Positions 2,150 to 47,670 are shown, counted from the first letter of the stretch. The stretch: 64,000 bases of DNA from a virus (IMGVR_UViG_3300033463_000014:1-64000), one strand, 5' to 3'. Notes: generated by a model from the letters alone, not told the origin. Numbers and translations are program-made.

Positions 2150-2178
2150 ATTATACCGAACTAGAGCCTTCCGCGCAA
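2150..2178 (-). promoter_or_regulatory. Sigma70-type promoter TTGCGC-N17-TATAAT (with CGG before the -10)
   Basis: Read directly on the minus strand, about 35 nt upstream of ATG 2114. Confidence 0.6.
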
Positions 2179-5082
2179 TGTCTCAATGACGCGGGCCCTC
2201 ATGGCGCCTGTGTTTACGGAACCGCGTCTTTCGCAGGCCTGCGCGAGCGGCGATCCGGAACGTATTGTCGCCAGCCTTTCCGCCCCGATGTTCACCTGTC
2301 CGACGGAGCCTGCGCCTACGTTGCTGAACCGCACCGTGCGCATTCCCGCCTGGTCGGAAAGGTACGCGCTGATGACGGACGCGGCATCTGGCGACCTTTT
2401 GGACTCAACGGGGTTCTTGTTCCTCCCGTTCGCGGTTGCGGACGACCACCTTCCGATGATGTCCCTCCACACGGTCCTCCATCCCGGTACGCCGAACAGG
2501 CGGAGCTCCTCGGCCCTTGAGATCTCGCCGAGAAGTCCGTGCCACACCGGCGTGTCGCGGACCATGCCGGCCACGCGGAGTATCTCCATGGACTCCGATG
2601 GGGATGCGGGGGAAGGGTCGCCGGGAAGTCCGCATGACGTCCTGGCGTCCGCCCTGCGCAGCGGATCCGGACGGAAGTCTGGTTTCGGCTCATGGGCTTT
2701 TCCGTACATCGACGCTGCTATCCTTGACGCGTTCGCCCCCGTTCCCTTGGCGTACCTGCCGATGGATGGTATGGCCAGCATGGGGTCGCGCGGAACGACG
2801 TCGAGTGTCTCGAACCTGCTCGGATCGGGGAACAGGCGCTTGAGTATGGAGAGGGCGTTGCGGTAGCTCCCGTCGTTGTAGCCAACATGCGTGGCTGACG
2901 GGATCTCCCTGTCGTACGGCGAGAGGAAGACGTGGTCGTAGTCCTGCACGCCGACCACGCCGGCGAAGTTGAAGTAGCCGGAGGCGATGATCGTGTCGCA
3001 CCGGCTCTCGTACCCGCTCCATCTCGCGTAGTCGAGGAAGGTGTCGCGGTCGATCTGCATCCACATGTGCGGCTGGAAGTAGCGGGCGGCGTCGGTGACG
3101 CCTTCGGACCTCCTCCGATCCGTCTCCCTCACGAGGGTGTCGCGAAGTCTGGAGTGCCAGACCCTTCCCATGTCCGCGTAGAACCCGTCGGACGGGTCGA
3201 ACATCCTGATCCAGCGCGGCGTGAAGTCGTCCCACGTGCATTGTCGGGTCTGGAACTGGTCGTCGGAGCAGAAGAGGATGCGTTTCGCGATTCCCCTCTG
3301 CTCGCAGGCGTGGCGGAGCTTGTCGATGATGTTCGCGTCCTTGGCGTGTGAGAAGCGGTCCGGCCACTGGAGGTGGATGACCTTCGAGCGGTCGACCCAC
3401 GGCGGGCAGAAGCCGCAGATGTAGACGTTGCGGACGAATGGGCAGTTTTTCTCGACGCTTCTGAGGGCGTACCGGAGCTCTGTGTTGTTGTCGGCCGAAC
3501 CAGTGCCGATGACGAACACGGCGTCAACGGCATTCATGGCCAAGCCGGCCTCGAAGGGGGCAGGCGGAAGTTTGTCGGCCTTCGCCGCCCAGTACCTCTT
3601 CACCTCCCTTCCATGCGCGTTGCCTGTGTAGTGCAGTATTTTTCCGTTCCAAGACGACGGCATGTCGGCGAGGCGCGTAAAGCTCGTCTGCCATCCTTTG
3701 GCGGAAAAGTCACAGAAACCTTCATGCCATTTTTCGTCATTGTGGTATAGATGCCCGAAAATGCACTCGTCGTCCTCGATGGGGAACTCGCTGTCCAGGC
3801 TTTTAAGCCGCTCATTGGCGTCGTTGTGGAAAAACATCATGCAGTTCCAGCACATTCGGTTGTTATAGTCCCTGTCGGGATGGCGATTGTCTGGATTCTC
3901 CACATGATTGAGAGGCCTGCGCACAAAACCCTTTTCCTTGGGTCCGCCATTGGCCACATAGTCGAAGCTGGGGTCGTATTTCCCGGTCTCGTTTGGGGCG
4001 TAGAACTGCGTGCAGATGAACCCAGGTGATGAGGCGGCGTAGTCGAAGCACTCGTCCAGATTGCCCACGATCTCGGCGTCATCGTCAATCCACGCCCACT
4101 CCTTTGGGGAAAGCCTTGTCGCTATCGCATGCAGAAGCGCCTTCTTGGAATACCATCCGACATTGCGGCTTACGGCTCTTGACGCCAAGGGTCTGGACAG
4201 GGCCCACTCGTCGGAGCAGTCGAACACCGTTCCTCCGCTGTATTCAGCCGCGGCCTCGCAGTATTCCATGTCGTCGTCACGCCAATCTCCGGGAGGCCCG
4301 GGAACTATCACAAGAGGGATTTTGTTTCCGGAGGCGAAATACGCCCTTATCCACGGGCGTATCAGCTCGTGTCGAGGAGACACCACAATACACCTGTCCA
4401 GCATGTCCATATCGCCTCCGTCGTTGCTCCCGGAGACGATCCGGTCCATTTCCCTATGCCCTCCTTTGTCTACGTAGTGTATGCAGAAGGTCCTTCCCGG
4501 GGCTTCTCCTTTCCTCCATACCCATCCAAAGGCTGGATCCATCTCCGTGATGCTGAACATTCCGTTGAGCAGGTCCTGGTCTCGCAGCTTGAGGCCTACG
4601 CGCCTATGTATATCAAGACCGGCATCTATCTTCCTGCGCCACTCCGCCTTGTCGATCTTGCAGAGATCCATGACGAGGACGCCCGCGTTGCAATACACGG
4701 AGCCATTATATCCGCCGAACCTCGTCTTGAGATATGACTTATACTTGTTCTGTTTTACGTCAGACGCGGCGGCGAGGCCGTCCTTCCCTGTATCCACGTT
4801 CAGTATCTCGGCGAAACCTCGAAATATGTCGACGTCGACATCCAGCCATACCACCCTGTCATACTTATCGAACTGCCTCATCAGCGGGATGGCGAGCCGC
4901 GAGAAGTAGACCATCTGTCCTTCCGGCGCGCCGGTAAGCAGGCTTCTGGCCTCTTCCATGTCGAGATCCACTATGTCCACTCCGGGGACATGCTGGTGCA
5001 GACGCCTGACCACGTAGTTCCTGTATCCAACGTACCTATCGCCCGAAGCGTACACGGCGAACGCGCATTTTTTACGATCCAT
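2161..5082 (-). CDS. Multi-domain glycosyltransferase (973 aa): GT8-like + second GT-A-like + Stealth-family phosphotransferase + unknown C-terminal extension
   Basis: GT8 motifs SRLAIP..YDRVVWLDVD, NAGVLVMDL, DQDLLN, IHY; second DxD WAWIDDD; Stealth CR1-CR4-like DAVFVIG, ELRYALRSVEKNCPFVRNVYI, FCSDDQF, PH, LFPDPSRFE. Confidence 0.8.
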   Translation of the reverse strand: MDRKKCAFAVYASGDRYVGYRNYVVRRLHQHVPGVDIVDLDMEEARSLLTGAPEGQMVYFSRLAIPLMRQFDKYDRVVWLDVDVDIFRGFAEILNVDTGKDGLAAASDVKQNKYKSYLKTRFGGYNGSVYCNAGVLVMDLCKIDKAEWRRKIDAGLDIHRRVGLKLRDQDLLNGMFSITEMDPAFGWVWRKGEAPGRTFCIHYVDKGGHREMDRIVSGSNDGGDMDMLDRCIVVSPRHELIRPWIRAYFASGNKIPLVIVPGPPGDWRDDDMEYCEAAAEYSGGTVFDCSDEWALSRPLASRAVSRNVGWYSKKALLHAIATRLSPKEWAWIDDDAEIVGNLDECFDYAASSPGFICTQFYAPNETGKYDPSFDYVANGGPKEKGFVRRPLNHVENPDNRHPDRDYNNRMCWNCMMFFHNDANERLKSLDSEFPIEDDECIFGHLYHNDEKWHEGFCDFSAKGWQTSFTRLADMPSSWNGKILHYTGNAHGREVKRYWAAKADKLPPAPFEAGLAMNAVDAVFVIGTGSADNNTELRYALRSVEKNCPFVRNVYICGFCPPWVDRSKVIHLQWPDRFSHAKDANIIDKLRHACEQRGIAKRILFCSDDQFQTRQCTWDDFTPRWIRMFDPSDGFYADMGRVWHSRLRDTLVRETDRRRSEGVTDAARYFQPHMWMQIDRDTFLDYARWSGYESRCDTIIASGYFNFAGVVGVQDYDHVFLSPYDREIPSATHVGYNDGSYRNALSILKRLFPDPSRFETLDVVPRDPMLAIPSIGRYAKGTGANASRIAASMYGKAHEPKPDFRPDPLRRADARTSCGLPGDPSPASPSESMEILRVAGMVRDTPVWHGLLGEISRAEELRLFGVPGWRTVWRDIIGRWSSATANGRNKNPVESKRSPDAASVISAYLSDQAGMRTVRFSNVGAGSVGQVNIGAERLATIRSGSPLAQACERRGSVNTGAMRARVIETLRGRL

Positions 5083-5104
5083 ACTCTCCTCATCCTCCTG
5101 CCGT

Positions 5105-5114
5105 ATTATACCAA
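5105..5114 (-). promoter_or_regulatory. Extended -10 promoter TTGGTATAAT
   Basis: Intergenic, 22 nt upstream of ATG 5082; the identical 10-mer recurs before other genes. Confidence 0.65.
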
Positions 5115-5115
5115 C

Positions 5116-7548
5116 CTATTCGGATGCCGAGAATCCGAACACCCTTCCGAATCGCCTCCCGAACGCGCCGACGAGGAGTGGTGTGTCCGATCTCGGGGGG
5201 GCGTCCGAGACGCGCGTCGCCGCGTGCGTTTCCGGGGAGGGCTCAGCCTCCCTGGCGGACGCCCCTTTGAACCCGCGCTCGAACCGGCAGGCTGAGGGGA
5301 ACAGCTTTCCGGCGAACTCCATCGCCTTTTTGAACACTCCGTCCGTATAGGCGATGTGAGTAACGTCGGGGATATCCTTTGTATTCTCGCAGATGAAGCG
5401 GTGGTCGTATATCTGGCTTCCGCCCGCGTCGATGAAGTTGAAGTACCCTGAGGCGATGATGGTGTCGGACCGGTTTGCGTAGTCTGACCATTCGGCGTAC
5501 TTCAGGAAGAGGTCGCGGTCGATCTGCATCCACATGTGCGGCTCGTAGTAGAAGACACGCGTGTCGTCAAGTCCCGCGTCGCGCCTCCGCTTGGCGTCCC
5601 TCTCAAGCGTGTCGCGCAGCCGCGTGTGCCACTCCCGCTTCATGTCCGTGTACCACGTGTCTGACGGGTCGTACCTCCTGAGCCAGCGCGGGGCGAAATC
5701 CTCCCATGAGCAGACATGCGTCTGGAACTGGTCGTCGGAGCAGAAGAGGACGCGCCTGGCCATCCCCTTTTCGGAGCACGCCCGGCGGAGCTTGTCGATG
5801 ATGTTGGCGTCCTTGGCGTGCCTGTACTTGTCCGGCCACGGGATATGGCGTACCGTGTCCGTGTTGACGAACGGCGGCAGATCGCCGCAGATGTATACGT
5901 CGCGGACGAACGGGCAGTTCGTGTCTAGGCTCCGGAGCGCGTACCTGAGCTCCTCGTTCCCGTTCTTTGAACCTTTGCCGATGACGAACACGGCGTCTAC
6001 GGCCAGATCGTCTGGTATTCCCGCCTTGGAGGTCATCATGCCGCTCATGAGCGAGTCCATGTTTCCTATGAGGCACTCGAACGGCGCTGGGGGTAGTTCG
6101 CTGACCTTGGCCTCCCACATTTTCTTCACCTCCCAGCCGTTCCTCCTGGATGCGTAATGGATGGCCTTGCCATTCCAGTCCTTCGGAATATCTGAGACCG
6201 ACTTACACACCGTCTGCCATCCAAGATGCGAGAAGTCTCTGAACCCGTCATGCCATTCCTGGTCGACGTTGTAGAGATAGCCGAAGATAATTTCGTCGTC
6301 CTCTATCGGATAGTCCTTGGACAGCTTGTCTGTAAGCCTCGCGTTCGCGTCATTATGGAAAAACACAAGGGAGTTCCAGCAGAGCTTATCCCCTCGGTAG
6401 AGCCTGAACATGCCGGCCGGACGGGAATCCGTCTTTCCAGGCCTGTAGAACTGGGAGCAGATGAACCCTGGCCTCGACTCTGCATAGTCGAAGCATTCAG
6501 ACAGGTCTCCCGTTATCTCAACGTCGTCATCGACCCATGCCCACGCCTTCGGGCTTACGCGCGTGGCGACGGCTCGGAGGAGGCTTTTCTTCGTATACCA
6601 CCCGATCATCTTGTTGAGGGATGACCTTTGGGCGAGACGCGCGGAATTTTTCCACTCCTCGGAGCAGTCGAGAACCATCCCGCCGCAGAAGGCCGCGGCG
6701 GCTTTGCAGTAGTCGAGGTCGCCCTCCTTCCAGTCTCCATCCGGTCCTGTCATGATGACGAGCGGAAGCGTGTTTCCTGAGGCGAAGTACGCGCGTATCC
6801 ACGGCCTGATGAACGCATGCCTCGGGGCGATGGCGACACATCTGTCTGAGGAGAGGGATACGCCAGTCTTTTCATGTCCGGACTCTATCTTTTCCAATAG
6901 AGCCTTGTGTCCTTGATTGTCAGCGTAATGGACGAGCCATGCGTTGTCTACCGAGGACTCACGCCAGATACTGTTGTATCTCTGGTCTATAACCTTTACA
7001 TTGAACAGCCCGTTAATTAGATCCTGGTCTGCGAACCTGAACGTTTTCGCGGCATGTATTGATATGCCTAATGAAACGCGGTCATGCCACGATTTTTTAT
7101 CTATCTTGTCAAGGTCCATGACGAGAACGCCAGAGTTGACGTATACGTCTATGTCCCTGCCTTGGAAATACCTTTTTAGTTCAGCCTTTCTTCGTTCTTG
7201 ACGCATATCAGGGCTCGCGGCGAGCCCGTCGTCGCTCGTCTCAACCTCAAGCACGCCGGCGAACATACCTGAAAGGATTTCCGTGTCGCAGTCAACCCAC
7301 ACGACCCTGTCGTATTTCTCGAACCTTTCTGACATCGGGATTGAAAGCCTGGAAAACTTAGGAATATCGGAATCAGTCAATCCAGGAAGCGCCGTCCTGA
7401 CGTCATCCATGTTTAGATCGACGACATCAACGCCAGGCGCGAACCATCCGAGCTGTCCGACAAGACGCTCCCTGAACCTTTTGTACATATCGCCTTGAGC
7501 AAATACGGCGAACGCGCATTTTCTGTTTAAGGCCATTTCACCCTCCAT
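5116..7548 (-). CDS. Paralogous multi-domain glycosyltransferase (810 aa): GT8-like + GT-A-like + Stealth
   Basis: Colinear with the 973-aa ORF: YDRVVWVDCD, NSGVLVMDL, DQDLIN, WAWVDDD, ELRYALRSLDTNCPFVRDVYI, FCSDDQF, LFPSACRFE. Confidence 0.8.
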   Translation of the reverse strand: MEGEMALNRKCAFAVFAQGDMYKRFRERLVGQLGWFAPGVDVVDLNMDDVRTALPGLTDSDIPKFSRLSIPMSERFEKYDRVVWVDCDTEILSGMFAGVLEVETSDDGLAASPDMRQERRKAELKRYFQGRDIDVYVNSGVLVMDLDKIDKKSWHDRVSLGISIHAAKTFRFADQDLINGLFNVKVIDQRYNSIWRESSVDNAWLVHYADNQGHKALLEKIESGHEKTGVSLSSDRCVAIAPRHAFIRPWIRAYFASGNTLPLVIMTGPDGDWKEGDLDYCKAAAAFCGGMVLDCSEEWKNSARLAQRSSLNKMIGWYTKKSLLRAVATRVSPKAWAWVDDDVEITGDLSECFDYAESRPGFICSQFYRPGKTDSRPAGMFRLYRGDKLCWNSLVFFHNDANARLTDKLSKDYPIEDDEIIFGYLYNVDQEWHDGFRDFSHLGWQTVCKSVSDIPKDWNGKAIHYASRRNGWEVKKMWEAKVSELPPAPFECLIGNMDSLMSGMMTSKAGIPDDLAVDAVFVIGKGSKNGNEELRYALRSLDTNCPFVRDVYICGDLPPFVNTDTVRHIPWPDKYRHAKDANIIDKLRRACSEKGMARRVLFCSDDQFQTHVCSWEDFAPRWLRRYDPSDTWYTDMKREWHTRLRDTLERDAKRRRDAGLDDTRVFYYEPHMWMQIDRDLFLKYAEWSDYANRSDTIIASGYFNFIDAGGSQIYDHRFICENTKDIPDVTHIAYTDGVFKKAMEFAGKLFPSACRFERGFKGASAREAEPSPETHAATRVSDAPPRSDTPLLVGAFGRRFGRVFGFSASE

Positions 7549-7555
7549 GAATGAA

Positions 7556-7957
7556 TCACGGCACTTCGATCACATACTCGCACATTCCGACGCCCGACGT
7601 ATCGTACACCTGGCTCTTCTGCTCTCCGACACCGGGAACGGTATAGAACACGACGATCGATGGGCAATCATCCGTCTCCGGTGGCGTGACGGGGGACGAC
7701 GAACCTGCATGGCTCGGCCCTGAGGACGCTCCGTTGGACGAACCGGCATGGCTCGGTCCGGAGGAAGAGACCTTAGACGAAGACCCCTTCTGGGGGGACG
7801 ATGCAGTGGGATAGGAGACAGACGATCCGGACGTCCCGGATGATGGATACCATCCAGAGTCTTTCGATCCTGTAGACTGCGATGAATCACCGGCCGGTGA
7901 TCCGGATGTCGGATAAGACGAGGATGTTCCCCTTGCAAACGCCCATTCGTTTTCCAT
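7556..7957 (-). CDS. Ser/Gly/Pro-rich low-complexity protein (133 aa) with a small Cys-bounded C-terminal domain
   Basis: GGGAG RBS; duplicated SSGPSHAGSS unit; fills the gap between flanking genes. Confidence 0.6.
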   Translation of the reverse strand: MENEWAFARGTSSSYPTSGSPAGDSSQSTGSKDSGWYPSSGTSGSSVSYPTASSPQKGSSSKVSSSGPSHAGSSNGASSGPSHAGSSSPVTPPETDDCPSIVVFYTVPGVGEQKSQVYDTSGVGMCEYVIEVP

Positions 7958-10504: not shown

Positions 10505-11574
10505 AGTGCGCCTCCTGACAGTCCGGGGACCTGTATGATGACGGCGTTCGACGTGACGCTGTCCATCGTCTCGCCTTCCGCAAGCTCGACGCCCATCCCG
10601 TTCACAACAACCTCAGGTTCGGTCGTCTTAGGCGAGACGACGCCATCCTCAAGCGTGATGGAGAGCGGGTTCGCGTACCCGACCTCGTTCGGGACGACGA
10701 GGTAGAACGCGTTCTCCGCCCCGTCAGCGTTCTCGGACGTCGGTGGGACGAAGACCTCCTCAAGCTGGTATGTCTCAGGGAGGGGCTCACCGGCGTCCTC
10801 GTAGGACTTGTCGCACGGGCCGTCTTCTCCTTCCCCGCACGAGCAGGTGTCGGCCGGCATAAACGACAGCTCCCTGTGAGCGGCGGCGCAGACATCCTCC
10901 CTGTCTATCCCCTCAAGCTGGAGGGCGACGGTGTTTGATCCGGGCGCCAGTTTCGAGATCCTGAACGGCGTCTGCCCGTCAACCACGCAGATGACCCTCC
11001 TGACGGACAGGTCCTCTGCCGCCGAAGGCCTCGGCAGGACGTCGAACCTGAGCGTCTTCCGCCCGTCTTCCAGAGTTCCGCTTGAGACCCTAACCTCGTC
11101 ATCTGCTCCGTTCACGAACGATACGTCTCCAGCTGCCGGACCCGCTCCTCCAACCGTGATTGACGTGACGCCGCCGACGGAAACAGGGAAGAGGCACGAT
11201 GCGGCGAACGCAGCCTGGTCAGCCGTGTACCTCATCTCGTAGCCCCTGTGGGCGAACTCGGACAGCGCATCTACGGACGACGCGCAGAGGACGCCGCACG
11301 GCCTGGACAGACCAGAGAGGTCGGTGAACTCGACCGAAGCACCGTCCGGCCTGCCGGTCATGATGACGCCAGTTCCGTCTGACACGCTGAACAGGCCGTC
11401 CTCCGACACGGAAGACAGGTAGACGGTCCCGGACGGGTTGACCGGGTATATCGCCGCGTCGATGAAAACGCCGTCCGGGATGGCCGATCCCTCGGCGGAC
11501 GGATCCCTGCCTCCGGCGAATGGGTACGCCCTCAGCGCGTTCTCGTTCTCAAACTCAAGGAAAATGCCTTCCAT
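10501..11574 (-). CDS. NEN..R.YP-family protein (357 aa)
   Basis: N-terminal EFENENALRAYPF...DAAIY; Cys cluster CSCG..PC. Confidence 0.65.
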   Translation of the reverse strand: MEGIFLEFENENALRAYPFAGGRDPSAEGSAIPDGVFIDAAIYPVNPSGTVYLSSVSEDGLFSVSDGTGVIMTGRPDGASVEFTDLSGLSRPCGVLCASSVDALSEFAHRGYEMRYTADQAAFAASCLFPVSVGGVTSITVGGAGPAAGDVSFVNGADDEVRVSSGTLEDGRKTLRFDVLPRPSAAEDLSVRRVICVVDGQTPFRISKLAPGSNTVALQLEGIDREDVCAAAHRELSFMPADTCSCGEGEDGPCDKSYEDAGEPLPETYQLEEVFVPPTSENADGAENAFYLVVPNEVGYANPLSITLEDGVVSPKTTEPEVVVNGMGVELAEGETMDSVTSNAVIIQVPGLSGGAL

Positions 11575-11594
11575 CTGACTCTCCCACCCCTACA

Positions 11595-12314
11595 TCACCT
11601 GAAAAGAAGGACGATGTTCCCGTCCGGGTCTGGTGCAACCCCGTTTATGGACCTGATCGGCGTCGCCCCGCACACGCCGTCTCCCTCAGCGAGTCCGACG
11701 CACCTGGACATCAGCTCCTCCGCCGATCCAGGGTCAAGAGACAGCGAGAACCCTCCGCCCGAAAGGGACGCGTCAACATGGCCGGAGAACGAGAACCCGA
11801 CATCACCTGAAACCGATTCTCCGCTTCTCGGGTCCGTAATGGACCTGAGGCCCGAAGGGGTCGCCGCGGCAACGCAGCAGGGAAGGATCTCGGCGTACGA
11901 GAACCTGTACGTCTCAGGAAACGTCGGGAAGTCGAACGACCCGAACGCGATGACGCCTCCGGCGTCCGCCATCCCCGGATATCCGGAAAGGGGTTTCAGG
12001 GCATACGGGAAATACGGCCTGAACGACGCGGCGGACACCGTGACGGAAAGGGCGTCGTCCGTCGGGGAGACCCCGGCGTACGCCCTGAAGCACACAGACA
12101 CCATCGCAGGAGAGACGTGTGCGCTCTCGAGCCTGACCGACGTAACGCAGTCCGTACCGTCGCGGAACGGGACGCAGAACCTCGCGTCCGCTATAAGGCT
12201 GTCCGGCAGCTCTTTTCCGTCTTCCGACACGAGCGACGCCCAGTCGGCGAATGGGAACCTCCTCATCGCGTTCTCGTTCTCGAACTGCTCCGCCATCTCC
12301 ATCCTGACAGGCAT
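11595..12314 (-). CDS. NEN..R.YP-family protein (239 aa; start reassigned to MPVRMEMA)
   Basis: GGAGGAG RBS before ATG 12314; QFENENAMRRFPF; C-terminal IRSINGVAPDPDGNI. Confidence 0.65.
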   Translation of the reverse strand: MPVRMEMAEQFENENAMRRFPFADWASLVSEDGKELPDSLIADARFCVPFRDGTDCVTSVRLESAHVSPAMVSVCFRAYAGVSPTDDALSVTVSAASFRPYFPYALKPLSGYPGMADAGGVIAFGSFDFPTFPETYRFSYAEILPCCVAAATPSGLRSITDPRSGESVSGDVGFSFSGHVDASLSGGGFSLSLDPGSAEELMSRCVGLAEGDGVCGATPIRSINGVAPDPDGNIVLLFR

Positions 12315-42474: not shown

Positions 42475-43494
42475 CTAGCTGCCGCTGCCAGAGTCAGAGC
42501 CCGAGGTTTCGGTGTCCCAGCTTCCCTGGAACTGCGACCCGAACCGGGCCACCGCCATGCCGGCGATGTTGCCGAACGAGAAGCCGCCCAGCCAGTAGCT
42601 GAACCACTTGATGAAGTACGCCTCCTTGTTGAGGTACATCGTCCAGTCGGTCAGCGTGTAGTTGTGGCCGAGGAACGACGGCTCCGCGAAGAAGTAGATG
42701 TACCCCTCCGGGACCAGGCTGCGCTTGATCGTGGAGATCGCCTTGATGCCCATGATCGTGGTCTCGGTGAGGCCGTTCTTCCAGTGCTCCTGGGCAAGGT
42801 CGCCACCGATTTCCTGACGGTTGAGCTTCAGCACGTCGCGCAGCGTGTTCTCGTGCGCAAGCATGACGTAGTTGCGGGCGATGAACTTGTCGTTGGCGTT
42901 TCCGGCCGGCAGCATCTTCGTTGCATCCGTGAACGTGTCGCGGTTGAGGCCTTCCTCGAAGTCCCTCCACTGAACCTTGCCGGTGACGGGATGGACGTTG
43001 CCGGCCACTCCGCCGCCAACAGTGTTGCTGACGATCGAGTTGACGGTGTCGATGAACTTCCGGTCGTGCGTAGCCATGCCGTCCTTGATGCTGTTGTCGG
43101 TGAGCATCTTGCGGATCGGGTAGTTGTACGTCCGGAGCTGGTCGATGTCCTTCGTGAACGCCGGGGTGACGATCCGGGCGAGCGGGGTGATGTACTTGGA
43201 CCCCGTGATGATCTCGCCCTCGGGGACCATCTCGAACGGGACGTACTTCGCTCCCGGGGAATCGGGCTCGAGGTCGTCGATGACGATCAGGTCCTCGGTC
43301 ATGGTCTTCGCCAGCTTCTCGTTGCCGATCTTCTCGGGCGGGAGGATCTTGTTGGCGAAAGAACCCTCACGGATGTTGATGCGCGTCACGTCGCTCGCGG
43401 CCTGCGCCACCTTCTCGATGTCGGCGGACGCGCCCTTCTCGAGCATGGCGCGGAGGTTGCGGTCAAGAATCTGCTCCTGTGCTTCCTTAGTCAT
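42475..43494 (-). CDS. Major capsid protein (HK97-fold, 339 aa)
   Basis: Canonical protease-scaffold-decoration-MCP order; strong codon bias and AGGAG RBS; IREGSFANKILPP and VPEGYIYFFAEP motifs; followed by a hairpin. Confidence 0.8.
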   Translation of the reverse strand: MTKEAQEQILDRNLRAMLEKGASADIEKVAQAASDVTRINIREGSFANKILPPEKIGNEKLAKTMTEDLIVIDDLEPDSPGAKYVPFEMVPEGEIITGSKYITPLARIVTPAFTKDIDQLRTYNYPIRKMLTDNSIKDGMATHDRKFIDTVNSIVSNTVGGGVAGNVHPVTGKVQWRDFEEGLNRDTFTDATKMLPAGNANDKFIARNYVMLAHENTLRDVLKLNRQEIGGDLAQEHWKNGLTETTIMGIKAISTIKRSLVPEGYIYFFAEPSFLGHNYTLTDWTMYLNKEAYFIKWFSYWLGGFSFGNIAGMAVARFGSQFQGSWDTETSGSDSGSGS

Positions 43495-46169: not shown

Positions 46170-46198
46170 ATCATACATAATCCTCTGTGGCGTGTCAA
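46170..46198 (-). promoter_or_regulatory. Sigma70-consensus promoter TTGACA-N17-TATGAT for the scaffold-capsid operon
   Basis: Read directly; lies in the 126-nt intergenic region, with the -35 overlapping the protease stop. Confidence 0.75.
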
Positions 46199-47670
46199 CT
46201 CGCGGACGGCGACACCATGTCCTGCGCCGCTGCGATCGCGATCACGTCGTCCTCACGTATGCCGGCGCATGCCGGCCCTGACAGCGCCGCGGCCAGCGCG
46301 GCCACCTTGTACATCGCGTAGCGCCTGGCCAGCCTGTCCGCGACAGCGGAAACCTCGCCGTCCGCATCCGCGTCCGCGCTTTTCTCCATACGGACGAACT
46401 GCGGGCACTCCCCGGACGCCATGGCAGACAGAATTCCAGTCACGGCGTCCCATGCGGAGAACCCGCCGGCGGACGCGGACTTCGACAGGGCCTCGCGGAT
46501 CGGACCGGGGACCGGACTAGAGAGCGCGAGCGGGCAGGACGGGTCGTAAGACGCGCAGTTGCAGAACCCGGCGCACGACGCCGTCTTGACGGCCTCCGTT
46601 ATGATCCCGGGAACCCTGCGGGCGACATGGCCAGCGTATCGCACGACCTTCCCGTATTCGGGGCCGAACGCGTACTTCAGGAACGATTCGGCGTCGAGGA
46701 TGACGCCGGCGTTCCCGAGCGCGGCGAAGGCGTCGGAAGGGTCAAGGGCCCTGAGCGACGACAGAGTCTCCCCGTCCAGCCTGGCGCCTGCGAGCTTCCT
46801 GAGCTCGAACTCGTATGCCTCCCTAGCCCCCGACGGCTTCGCGCCGCCGAAAATCCACGAGTCCATCCTGGAATAGGCGCCGGCCAGCTTTTTCATGATC
46901 CCGAGCTTCCTGACCGCCAGGTCCGACTCGATGACCAGATCGTCAGGGAGTACGTATCCCTCGATCTCTGCCCGCTTGACGGAACTGCAGATGGGGATGT
47001 CCTCCGGCATGCCAGAAGCGACCTTCAGGCTCCACGCGATGCGGTCCGCTGGCCGGCCGACGAAGGAGATGTCGAACCACGTCGGCTCGTCATTGTAGGT
47101 CCCGATCTGACTGCCGTCCTCCGCGATCTTCCCGAGGCTGTATTTGACGTGGTCGCACTCGTTCTCGTCGCCCGCCTGCTTCCGTATGGCCCCGCAGCAT
47201 GAGCAGCGGTCAAAAGGCACCTTGGCCGCCATGCTGAAGCTGACCTCGCCGGTCTTCTCGAGGCGGTCAAGATGGTCGCGGGCCTTCTCGTTGTCCGCCC
47301 AGATGTACAGCTCGATCCTGTGCATGTCCGGGTTGTATGCCGCGGCCTTGATCTGACCGATTGCCTTTTCGGGGTCCTTGTTCCTGTGGTGCTGGAAGAC
47401 GTGGCCGTACTTCACGAACGTGTCGTGGTACTTGACGCACGCCTCCTTAGGGAACAGATCCCCGTTCCTGTTCATCGGGTACGCCTCTGAGTCCCCGAGG
47501 GCGACCAGGTGGATCCCCGTCATGCCATCCGGAGGCTTGAGCTGGTCGTACCCGCACCTGAAGATCGTGGAGGCCTGCTTTCTCATCTCGGACGCGGACT
47601 TCACGATCTCCCCGCCAACCCCGACGGACTGGCTGATGTCGGAAGAGTATGTGACCTTGATCATCGACAT
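46195..47670 (-). CDS. Prohead maturation protease (HK97/assemblin-like Ser-His protease with a CxxC insert, 491 aa)
   Basis: NRNGDLF, HVFQHH, SFSMAAKVPFDRCSCCG...CDH, FDISFVGRPAD motifs; upstream of the scaffold gene. Confidence 0.75.
   Translation of the reverse strand: MSMIKVTYSSDISQSVGVGGEIVKSASEMRKQASTIFRCGYDQLKPPDGMTGIHLVALGDSEAYPMNRNGDLFPKEACVKYHDTFVKYGHVFQHHRNKDPEKAIGQIKAAAYNPDMHRIELYIWADNEKARDHLDRLEKTGEVSFSMAAKVPFDRCSCCGAIRKQAGDENECDHVKYSLGKIAEDGSQIGTYNDEPTWFDISFVGRPADRIAWSLKVASGMPEDIPICSSVKRAEIEGYVLPDDLVIESDLAVRKLGIMKKLAGAYSRMDSWIFGGAKPSGAREAYEFELRKLAGARLDGETLSSLRALDPSDAFAALGNAGVILDAESFLKYAFGPEYGKVVRYAGHVARRVPGIITEAVKTASCAGFCNCASYDPSCPLALSSPVPGPIREALSKSASAGGFSAWDAVTGILSAMASGECPQFVRMEKSADADADGEVSAVADRLARRYAMYKVAALAAALSGPACAGIREDDVIAIAAAQDMVSPSAS

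Follow-up and report, generated by a model that had tools for sequence, protein, structure and literature searches.

The locus considered here raises the question of what a large gut phage would build with two tandem genes that each encode three predicted glycan-building domains, and on which acceptor. The genes, P0002 and P0001, occupy positions 2161–7548 of a 64,000-nucleotide stretch (the window), the first 64 kb of the IMG/VR virus record IMGVR_UViG_3300033463_000014. This record has 181,382 bp, carries direct terminal repeats and is rated complete; the phage is uncultured, and its DNA is almost fully covered by two sequencing runs from a single bovine gut metagenome sample, possibly the source of the record. 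Each protein joins two glycosyltransferase (GT) domains of the GT-A fold, D1 and D2, to a Stealth-type domain, D3. With a probability of about one half, P0001 and P0002 would be late enzymes that use host uridine diphosphate (UDP)-sugars to put a phosphodiester-containing O-glycan on an acceptor that we infer to be virion proteins.

The initial annotation of this sequence had described two colinear three-domain paralogues, and its coordinates for them proved exact. P0001 and P0002 align colinearly over 778 residues with 50% identity (E = 0), and are therefore real paralogues rather than a chance match. P0002 was modelled with AlphaFold2 on the basis of 31 family members, and the mean predicted local distance difference test (pLDDT) value is 85.2. 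The model contains three folded blocks (residues 8–224, 235–494 and 512–762) joined by low-confidence linkers, while residues 763–810 (pLDDT < 50) are disordered. The layout of the two open reading frames (ORFs) is as follows.

5116..7548, minus strand: P0002, upstream paralogue, 810 residues, D1, D2 and D3 followed by a 48-residue disordered tail (ORF, translation and AlphaFold2 model)
6877..7527, minus strand: P0002 D1, predicted GT8 domain, residues 8–224
6067..6846, minus strand: P0002 D2, predicted divergent GT8-clan GT-A domain, residues 235–494
5263..6015, minus strand: P0002 D3, predicted compact Stealth-type domain, residues 512–762
2161..5082, minus strand: P0001, downstream paralogue, 973 residues, D1, D2 and D3 followed by a C-terminal extension of about 215 residues (ORF and translation)
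4438..5073, minus strand: P0001 D1, predicted GT8 domain, about residues 4–215, with PF01501 at 56–177 (boundaries from the alignment to P0002)
3550..4398, minus strand: P0001 D2, predicted GT8-like GT-A domain, about residues 229–511, with a 28-residue insert relative to P0002 (alignment and family conservation)
2809..3534, minus strand: P0001 D3, predicted Stealth-type domain, about residues 517–758, with Stealth_CR2 at 532–621 and PHROG 7999 at 529–759
2164..2808, minus strand: P0001 C-terminal extension, residues 759–973, without a counterpart in P0002

D1 had been called GT8-like, and Pfam bears this out: the domain scores 44.5 bits (P0001) and 44.0 bits (P0002) against PF01501 (GT8), for which the cut-off is 24.3. 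Its best sequence match in the PDB is LgtC (3.7e-9 with the family profile), and the modelled fold (residues 7–240) resembles those of UGGT (Z 19.1), WbbM (Z 19.0), LgtC (Z 18.7) and glycogenin (Z 17.4). The motifs D86xD88, N138xG140, D174-Q175-D176 and H207-Y208 are conserved in the family alignment. Among the 18 members having D1, D86xD88, DQD and H207-Y208 are kept in 14–18, and they align to the LgtC motifs. As judged by profile and model, D1 is a true GT8 domain and would be a retaining enzyme.

D2 (residues 235–494) has no Pfam or NCBIfam match at E ≤ 1 and no PDB profile match in the region; the NCBIfam scan returned nothing useful. Modelled alone, the domain reaches a pLDDT of 95.9, and over domain residues 1–266 its best fold matches are glycogenin (Z 15.5), LARGE1 (Z 15.3), GlyE (Z 15.2) and LgtC (Z 15.1). 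UGGT, AgtA and WbbM come next in Foldseek and a second, independent structure search, the hits from glycogenin to AgtA falling at Z 14.6–15.5. D340-D341-D342, a DDD form of the DxD that follows the fourth strand of the GT-A fold, is conserved in 29–31 of the 31 members, and H398, E416-D-D-E419 and H464-Y465 are conserved as well. A weak BLASTP alignment of D1 with D2 (E 0.064) places DxD on DDD, NSG on NS and DQD on EDDE, in register. Because of the GT8-clan fold matches and the motifs in register with D1, D2 would be a second, strongly diverged GT8-like domain, and on its modelled fold it is best described as a divergent GT8-clan retaining GT-A domain. The earlier claim of a second DxD GT-A domain is therefore upheld by the fold and the DDD motif, but not by any Pfam or NCBIfam profile. 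In comparison with the GT8 enzymes LgtC, glycogenin and GlyE, D1 is alike in Pfam membership and in the DxD, DQD and HY motifs, and D2 is alike in fold and in-register motifs; unlike LgtC-type enzymes, D2 lacks membership of the GT8 family by sequence. The top Foldseek matches of the whole P0002 model are enzymes with two GT-A domains, namely LARGE1, LH3 and WbbM. Yet none of LgtC, glycogenin, GlyE, LARGE1 and WbbM has a Stealth domain after the GT pair, as P0001 and P0002 do.

D3 is where the phosphodiester would arise. In this region, the family profile matches GNPTAB (9.7e-8) and CpsY (5.6e-4) in the PDB. By fold, the best match is human GNPTAB, a GlcNAc-1-phosphotransferase (GlcNAc, N-acetylglucosamine) that phosphoglycosylates glycoproteins (Z 20.8, root-mean-square deviation (rmsd) 2.5 Å, 224 residues, 21% identity), and CpsY of Mycobacterium tuberculosis is also matched (Z 19.3, rmsd 2.6 Å, 212 residues; Foldseek template-modelling (TM) score of 0.66 normalised to CpsY). 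Both matches span the whole catalytic core (model residues 512–759) with 18–22% identity. NEELRYALR, SDD, PH..IDRD and a terminal FP..RFE that aligns to GNPTAB are near-invariant among the 31 members; by eye, a CR1-like D-A-V-F-V-x-G, a CR3-like P-H..I-D-R-D and the terminal F-P..R-F-E can be recognised. This near-invariance suggests selection on an active site in D3, and catalytic-type motifs are kept in D1 and D2 as well.

Mutagenesis of CpsY identified E305, N322 and D324 in CR2 and R419 in CR3 as important residues, N322A cutting activity 200–500-fold (PMC10668966). In the HMMER alignment, the metal-binding D324 corresponds to D606 of P0002 (Asp in 29 of 31 members). In the E305 column, position 592, 28 of 31 members have Glu, P0001 among them; P0002 has Ser there and Glu at 593, and the near-invariant D585 lies close by. 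R419 was not aligned by sequence, and R678 (conserved in 30 of 31) is located within the CR3-equivalent segment of D3. Compared with the Stealth enzymes GNPTAB, CpsY and Neisseria meningitidis CsaB and CsxA, D3 has the same core fold, NEELRY.LRS, the metal Asp, PH...R at the CR3 position and a terminal FP..S.FE. However, it comprises only about 250 residues, is without the spacer segments, and has SDD rather than NDD and DAVFV.G rather than IDVVYTF.

These departures bear on an alternative in which the GT domains are active whereas D3 has no sugar-1-phosphate transfer activity and serves as a UDP-releasing GT, a binding module or an inactive scaffold, so that the product is a plain O-glycan. 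It would account for the Stealth_CR2 scores of D3, 35.0 bits (E 1.7e-8) in P0001 and 24.8 bits (E 2.6e-5) in P0002, which are both under the 39.4-bit cut-off, and for the Stealth CR1, CR3 and CR4 Pfam models (PF11380/PF17101/PF17102/PF17103 set), none of which matches D3 at E ≤ 1. It also fits the Ser that replaces CpsY N322 (S604 in P0002; Ser in 29 of 31 members). The CR4 tetrapeptide CLND/CIND is almost universally conserved in Stealth proteins (PMC10668966); it is found in neither P0001 nor P0002, where the consensus reads T-H-V-A-Y-H-D. Moreover, Stealth domains share a GT-A-like fold, and even D2 matches CpsY with a Z of 11.8. Nevertheless, this alternative is unlikely: the D3 motifs listed above are near-invariant, and the whole-core matches to GNPTAB and CpsY (Z 19–21) lie well above ordinary GT-A matches. 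Profile and predicted fold together describe D3 as a compact, divergent Stealth-type domain and not as a textbook member. The full set of CR1–CR4-like regions that had been claimed for it is reduced to the core fold, with CR2 below the cut-off and CR1, CR3 and CR4 unmatched by the Pfam models.

The C-terminal extension of P0001 has no Pfam match. It is conserved in many relatives, since the family consensus runs past the Stealth domain, and is also present in the homologues at the related loci L004 and L005. A protein-atlas look-up gave borderline clusters with a Stealth_CR3/CR4 flavour (score 0.90, 150 shared features) at TM < 0.4, which is uninformative. The extension is possibly involved in docking or substrate recognition.

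A word-based search of 5.8 billion proteins returned 70 clusters of relatives, all from metagenome assemblies and labelled only “hypothetical protein”, several of them on contigs of 100–190 kb. For three pairs of homologues the longest contig has the same length, so tandem pairs may recur elsewhere. The architectures found in relatives are D1+D2+D3 with or without the C-terminal extension, D2+D3, D1+D2, D3 plus extension (L005, 509 residues) and D3 alone (L006, 262 residues). An exhaustive HMMER search with D3 retrieved 1,093 representatives at E ≤ 1e-3 (253 at ≤ 1e-10), which either stand alone at about 230–260 residues or occupy various positions in proteins of 400–1,100 residues; sampled D3 clusters were metagenomic in 10 of 10 cases. 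Stealth_CR2 is matched at E ≤ 1e-3 by 40 of 45 distant multi-domain relatives, and the partner domains in those 45 (GT2, GT8, methyltransferase, sulfotransferase, TagF-like, GT29 and GT4) are nearly all glycan-building or glycan-tailoring; one distant relative is fused to PF04464.

D3 also matches PHROG 7999, an actinophage family of about 230 residues with no assigned function, over the full profile (positions 4–229 of 230; E 1.1e-17 for P0002 and 1.3e-16 for P0001). The relatives in isolated phages are small proteins of mycobacteriophages and of the Streptomyces phage TurkishDelight, and PHROG 7999 members lie near tail genes in MissDaisy and TurkishDelight. These actinophage members stand alone and share 25–36% identity with D3, whereas here the domain is fused to two GTs and duplicated. 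In TurkishDelight (L010, NC_073473.1 13245-25583), the capsid gene is followed by those for a membrane protein, a hypothetical protein, a 678-residue glycosyltransferase, the major tail protein, the 236-residue Stealth-like protein (annotated as hypothetical) and the adaptor. The D3 homologue is thus flanked by the genes for the major tail protein and the adaptor and lies two genes away from the annotated glycosyltransferase; this is likely a virion glycosylation cassette in an isolated phage.

The genes in question are the last large ones, on the same strand, at the distal end of a myovirus tail/baseplate/fibre module. Transcription proceeds towards lower coordinates, passing first the head protease gene, then sheath, baseplate J/wedge and a series of unannotated Cys-rich proteins, and after these P0073, P0074, P0002 and P0001, with three small ORFs left before the genome end. 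The relevant features are listed below.

46195-47670, minus strand: head protease gene, in the same-strand run with P0001/P0002
33529-35754, minus strand: tail sheath gene, in the same-strand run with P0001/P0002
20437-22146, minus strand: baseplate J/wedge gene, in the same-strand run with P0001/P0002
8047..9621, minus strand: P0073, 524 residues, Cys-rich repeats and a poly-Ser/Gly tract of about 65 residues, candidate acceptor (translation)
7556..7957, minus strand: P0074, 133 residues, of which about 90 (about 70%) are Ser-rich low complexity, with a small Cys-containing C-terminal module, candidate acceptor (translation)
5083..5115, minus strand: 33-bp spacer between P0002 and P0001, with TGGTATAAT as an extended -10-like box and, behind it, a GGAGG ribosome-binding site (read from the sequence)

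Over the full 181 kb, the minus strand carries all real-looking ORFs of at least 250 residues, and the plus-strand ones overlap longer minus-strand ORFs. The downstream copy, P0001, may have its own promoter in the 33-bp spacer; a generic promoter and terminator scan of the region gave nothing above chance. The placement within the virion gene cluster that the initial annotation had proposed agrees with the run of sheath, baseplate J and protease genes, but the identity of the immediate neighbours as fibre proteins is by inference.

No GT2, epimerase, nucleoside triphosphate (NTP)-transferase or thymidylate-synthase-type hydroxymethylase gene was found in the genome. With no recognisable nucleotide-sugar synthesis genes, P0001 and P0002 would depend on host UDP-sugars. 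The missing hydroxymethylase, which would provide a hydroxymethyl acceptor base, is also the reason for ranking low the bases of the phage DNA as targets (hypermodification against restriction); a related alternative is that the enzymes are packaged and injected and act on the host. Phage GTs do glycosylate DNA, with diverse GT folds recruited, according to a review and Pyle et al. 2024 as cited in PMC12619734. Yet the genes here lie in the tail/fibre module and not with the replication genes, and targets of this kind are very improbable. We know of no Stealth or GT8 enzymes with nucleic-acid acceptors.

Elsewhere in the genome, just outside the window, a 414-residue protein (G000 68131-69375, equal to L029:4732-5976, minus strand) combines Methyltransf_24 (E 1.2e-7) with a weak GT25-like segment (E 1.4e-3). 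It adjoins the large terminase gene (L029:6623-8371) and may be a further glycan-tailoring enzyme. Two further products of the phage are a C92 permuted papain-like amidase (E 4e-16) and a protein with a caspase domain (Peptidase_C14; E 2e-16), encoded at G000 about 72407-73054 and 74763-75683 (L029:9008-9655 and 11364-12284, minus strand).

As candidate acceptors, P0073 and P0074 are the most Ser-rich coding-strand ORFs, and one other coding-strand ORF has a comparable tract. The P0073 tract is the strongest on the coding strand in the whole 181-kb genome, and 7 bp separate P0074 from P0002, which follows it on the same strand. Neither protein has a Pfam or PHROG match. GlyE of Streptococcus pneumoniae, a GT8 enzyme among the top structural matches of D2, glycosylates a serine-rich repeat adhesin in the pneumococcal serine-rich-repeat-protein pathway. 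The co-occurrence of Ser tracts was compared across 21 loci. At the related rumen-type loci L005, L006, L025/L026, L017 and L018, and weakly at L004, the Stealth-like gene has a Ser-tract protein at a distance of no more than about 1 kb; the side differs between loci, and the architectures of these proteins are unrelated. At L005, a giant Cys-rich protein of 1359 residues with uninterrupted poly-Ser runs adjoins the Stealth-like gene (L005:5817-9896, plus strand); at L006, the adjoining Cys-rich protein has 1479 residues, Ser-Gly runs, BspA-type leucine-rich repeats and a collagen-like stretch (L006:11182-15621, plus strand). Both giant proteins are Pro-rich with collagen-like stretches, and the protein at L025/L026 carries SPNSS repeats. 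Pfam recognised only the BspA-type leucine-rich repeats and a weak collagen match among the Ser-tract proteins, both at L006. The association between Ser tracts and Stealth-like genes is suggestive: it is partial and not independent. That poly-Ser tracts are the specific acceptor is a tentative proposal, held at less than even odds.

A further Ser-rich protein in the window is P0235, a putative capsid protein of 339 residues (42475-43494, minus strand) without a Pfam or PHROG match, which has a Ser/Gly/Asp-rich C-terminal tail and is a candidate acceptor. Its homologues in two related phages have different Ser/Thr-rich tails after a conserved A-R-F motif; the tails themselves are not conserved.

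Instead of a modified virion protein, the product might be a free or lipid-anchored phosphoglycan, similar to a capsule or teichoic acid, made by self-contained poly(oligosaccharide-phosphate) polymerases and altering the host cell. Late masking of receptors would then reduce superinfection or keep progeny from sticking to debris. Characterised bacterial Stealth enzymes do make phosphodiester-linked capsule polymers (PMC5974469, PMC10668966), and two GTs with one phosphotransferase per chain resemble the oligosaccharide-phosphate logic of CslB and Cps1B. Some distant D3 relatives are, in addition, fused to TagF-like and capsule-synthesis domains. Fusions of GT and Stealth domains had initially been taken as known capsule polymerases, a statement that the literature does not support: in Litschko et al. 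2018 (PMC5974469), the Stealth capsule polymerases consist of a single domain, and the polymerases that combine GT and phosphotransferase domains, CslB, Cps1B and Cps7D, rely on TagF-like or GT-B-like domains and show no similarity to Stealth. The TagF-like polymerases (CslB, Cps1B, Cps7D and Bcs3) follow the same logic of GT(s) and phosphotransferase in one chain to give oligosaccharide-phosphate repeats, but they carry a PF04464-type domain that P0001 and P0002 do not match, so that the phosphotransferase parts are analogous and not homologous. Unlike the bacterial Stealth polymerases, D3 is fused to two GT-A domains, viral, predicted to be soluble and encoded in a tail-gene module.

Several features speak directly against a host-surface product. 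P0001 and P0002 have no transmembrane segment (highest 19-residue Kyte-Doolittle mean 1.3) and no amphipathic anchor, and are predicted to be soluble proteins. No exporter or lipid-primer gene was recognised nearby in the Pfam and PHROG scans of the neighbours. A pattern scan of 185,579 species genomes, which could miss divergent copies, revealed no relative and no link to a host or prophage; the family therefore looks viral and not taken from host capsule loci. The genes are also at the end of the tail/fibre module, beside Ser-rich proteins. A host-surface product is quite unlikely, although the initial idea that the phage makes a phospho-glycan, be it for virion proteins or for the host surface, is plausible as a whole.

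Against the modification of virion proteins weigh, in addition to the low CR2 scores, the Ser at the N322 position and the missing CLND/CIND of D3, several observations on context. Since an initiating protein O-glycosyltransferase of a known kind is absent, Ser would have to be modified directly by one of the domains. The Pfam and PHROG scans of ten neighbouring ORFs gave no match and no recognised fibre domain. No Ser-tract ORF was found beside the Stealth-like gene at L013, L019, L021, L022, L023 and on short contigs, and the phages carrying the loci are related, so that shared synteny is not independent evidence. Finally, no RNA runs containing the sequence are listed for the region.

In the mechanism that follows from modification of virion proteins, P0001 and P0002 would each have three active sites and work late in infection as soluble enzymes of the cytoplasm; their transcription would coincide with, or closely follow, that of the tail and fibre genes. 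D1 and D2 would add α-linked sugars from UDP-sugar donors with retention, and D3 would move a sugar-1-phosphate from a UDP-sugar, releasing uridine monophosphate and forming a phosphodiester. The glycan would be built on hydroxyls of virion proteins before or during assembly, the likeliest acceptors being the Ser tracts of P0073 and P0074; Ser/Thr-rich tails of other structural proteins could possibly be acceptors as well. A single round of action would give a short glycan, and iterative action an oligosaccharide-phosphate polymer. It seems doubtful that each protein is a self-contained polymerase laying repeating, teichoic-acid-like oligosaccharide-phosphate chains on the poly-Ser of fibre or adhesin proteins, i.e., a “proteophosphoglycan”. 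The paralogues would differ in donor or acceptor specificity, with the P0001 extension providing substrate docking. The glycan might shield, stiffen or solubilise the fibres, or bind receptors or mucus.

To our knowledge, few phages are documented to glycosylate their virions; in these, the modification changes recognition by antibodies. The known virus systems (phages Che8, Corndog and Myrna, A64R of PBCV-1 and the mimivirus fibril GTs) are alike in having GT genes in or beside the structural genes and multi-domain GTs. The capsid GT of PBCV-1 (2p6w) matches the D2 fold with a Z of 13.0, and multi-GT viral proteins dominate the structure matches in BFVD. According to Freeman et al. 2023 (cited in PMC12619734 and PMC12363180), GTs encoded by mycobacteriophages act on the capsid and tail tube proteins of these phages. 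In contrast to these systems, the candidate acceptors here are long poly-Ser tracts and not short C-terminal tails, and the glycosylation is predicted. No Stealth-type phosphotransferase is reported for the virion glycosylation systems in the sources consulted, and the mycobacteriophage pangenome annotation in PMC12363180 mentions neither Stealth nor a phosphotransferase. A full-text search for Stealth and phage glycosylation yielded no paper describing such a phage enzyme. The view that this is not a standard phage module consequently holds in part: GTs inside structural modules are known and the Stealth-like domain is already PHROG 7999, but the fusion of GT8, GT8-like and Stealth domains, its tandem copy and its poly-Ser setting are absent from the literature searched. 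The arrangement is a variant on virion glycosylation and on Stealth phosphotransferases.

If the proposal is correct, phosphodiester-linked glycans and long poly-Ser acceptors would be added to the chemistry of the phage particle. A function would be obtained for PHROG 7999 and for a family of compact Stealth-like domains that comprises over 1,000 clusters, nearly all of them metagenomic. Defined oligosaccharide-phosphate polymers for glycoconjugate synthesis, which now uses single-domain Stealth or TagF-like polymerases, could also be made with soluble enzymes that have three active sites. The less likely polymerase version, with repeating chains laid on poly-Ser, would in addition be the first case of protein phosphoglycosylation by a Stealth-type enzyme in a bacterial virus, with P0001 and P0002 as the first characterised Stealth enzymes in a multi-domain assembly line. 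For the ecology of rumen and gut, the proposal would suggest that large phages there dress their fibres in host-like glycans.

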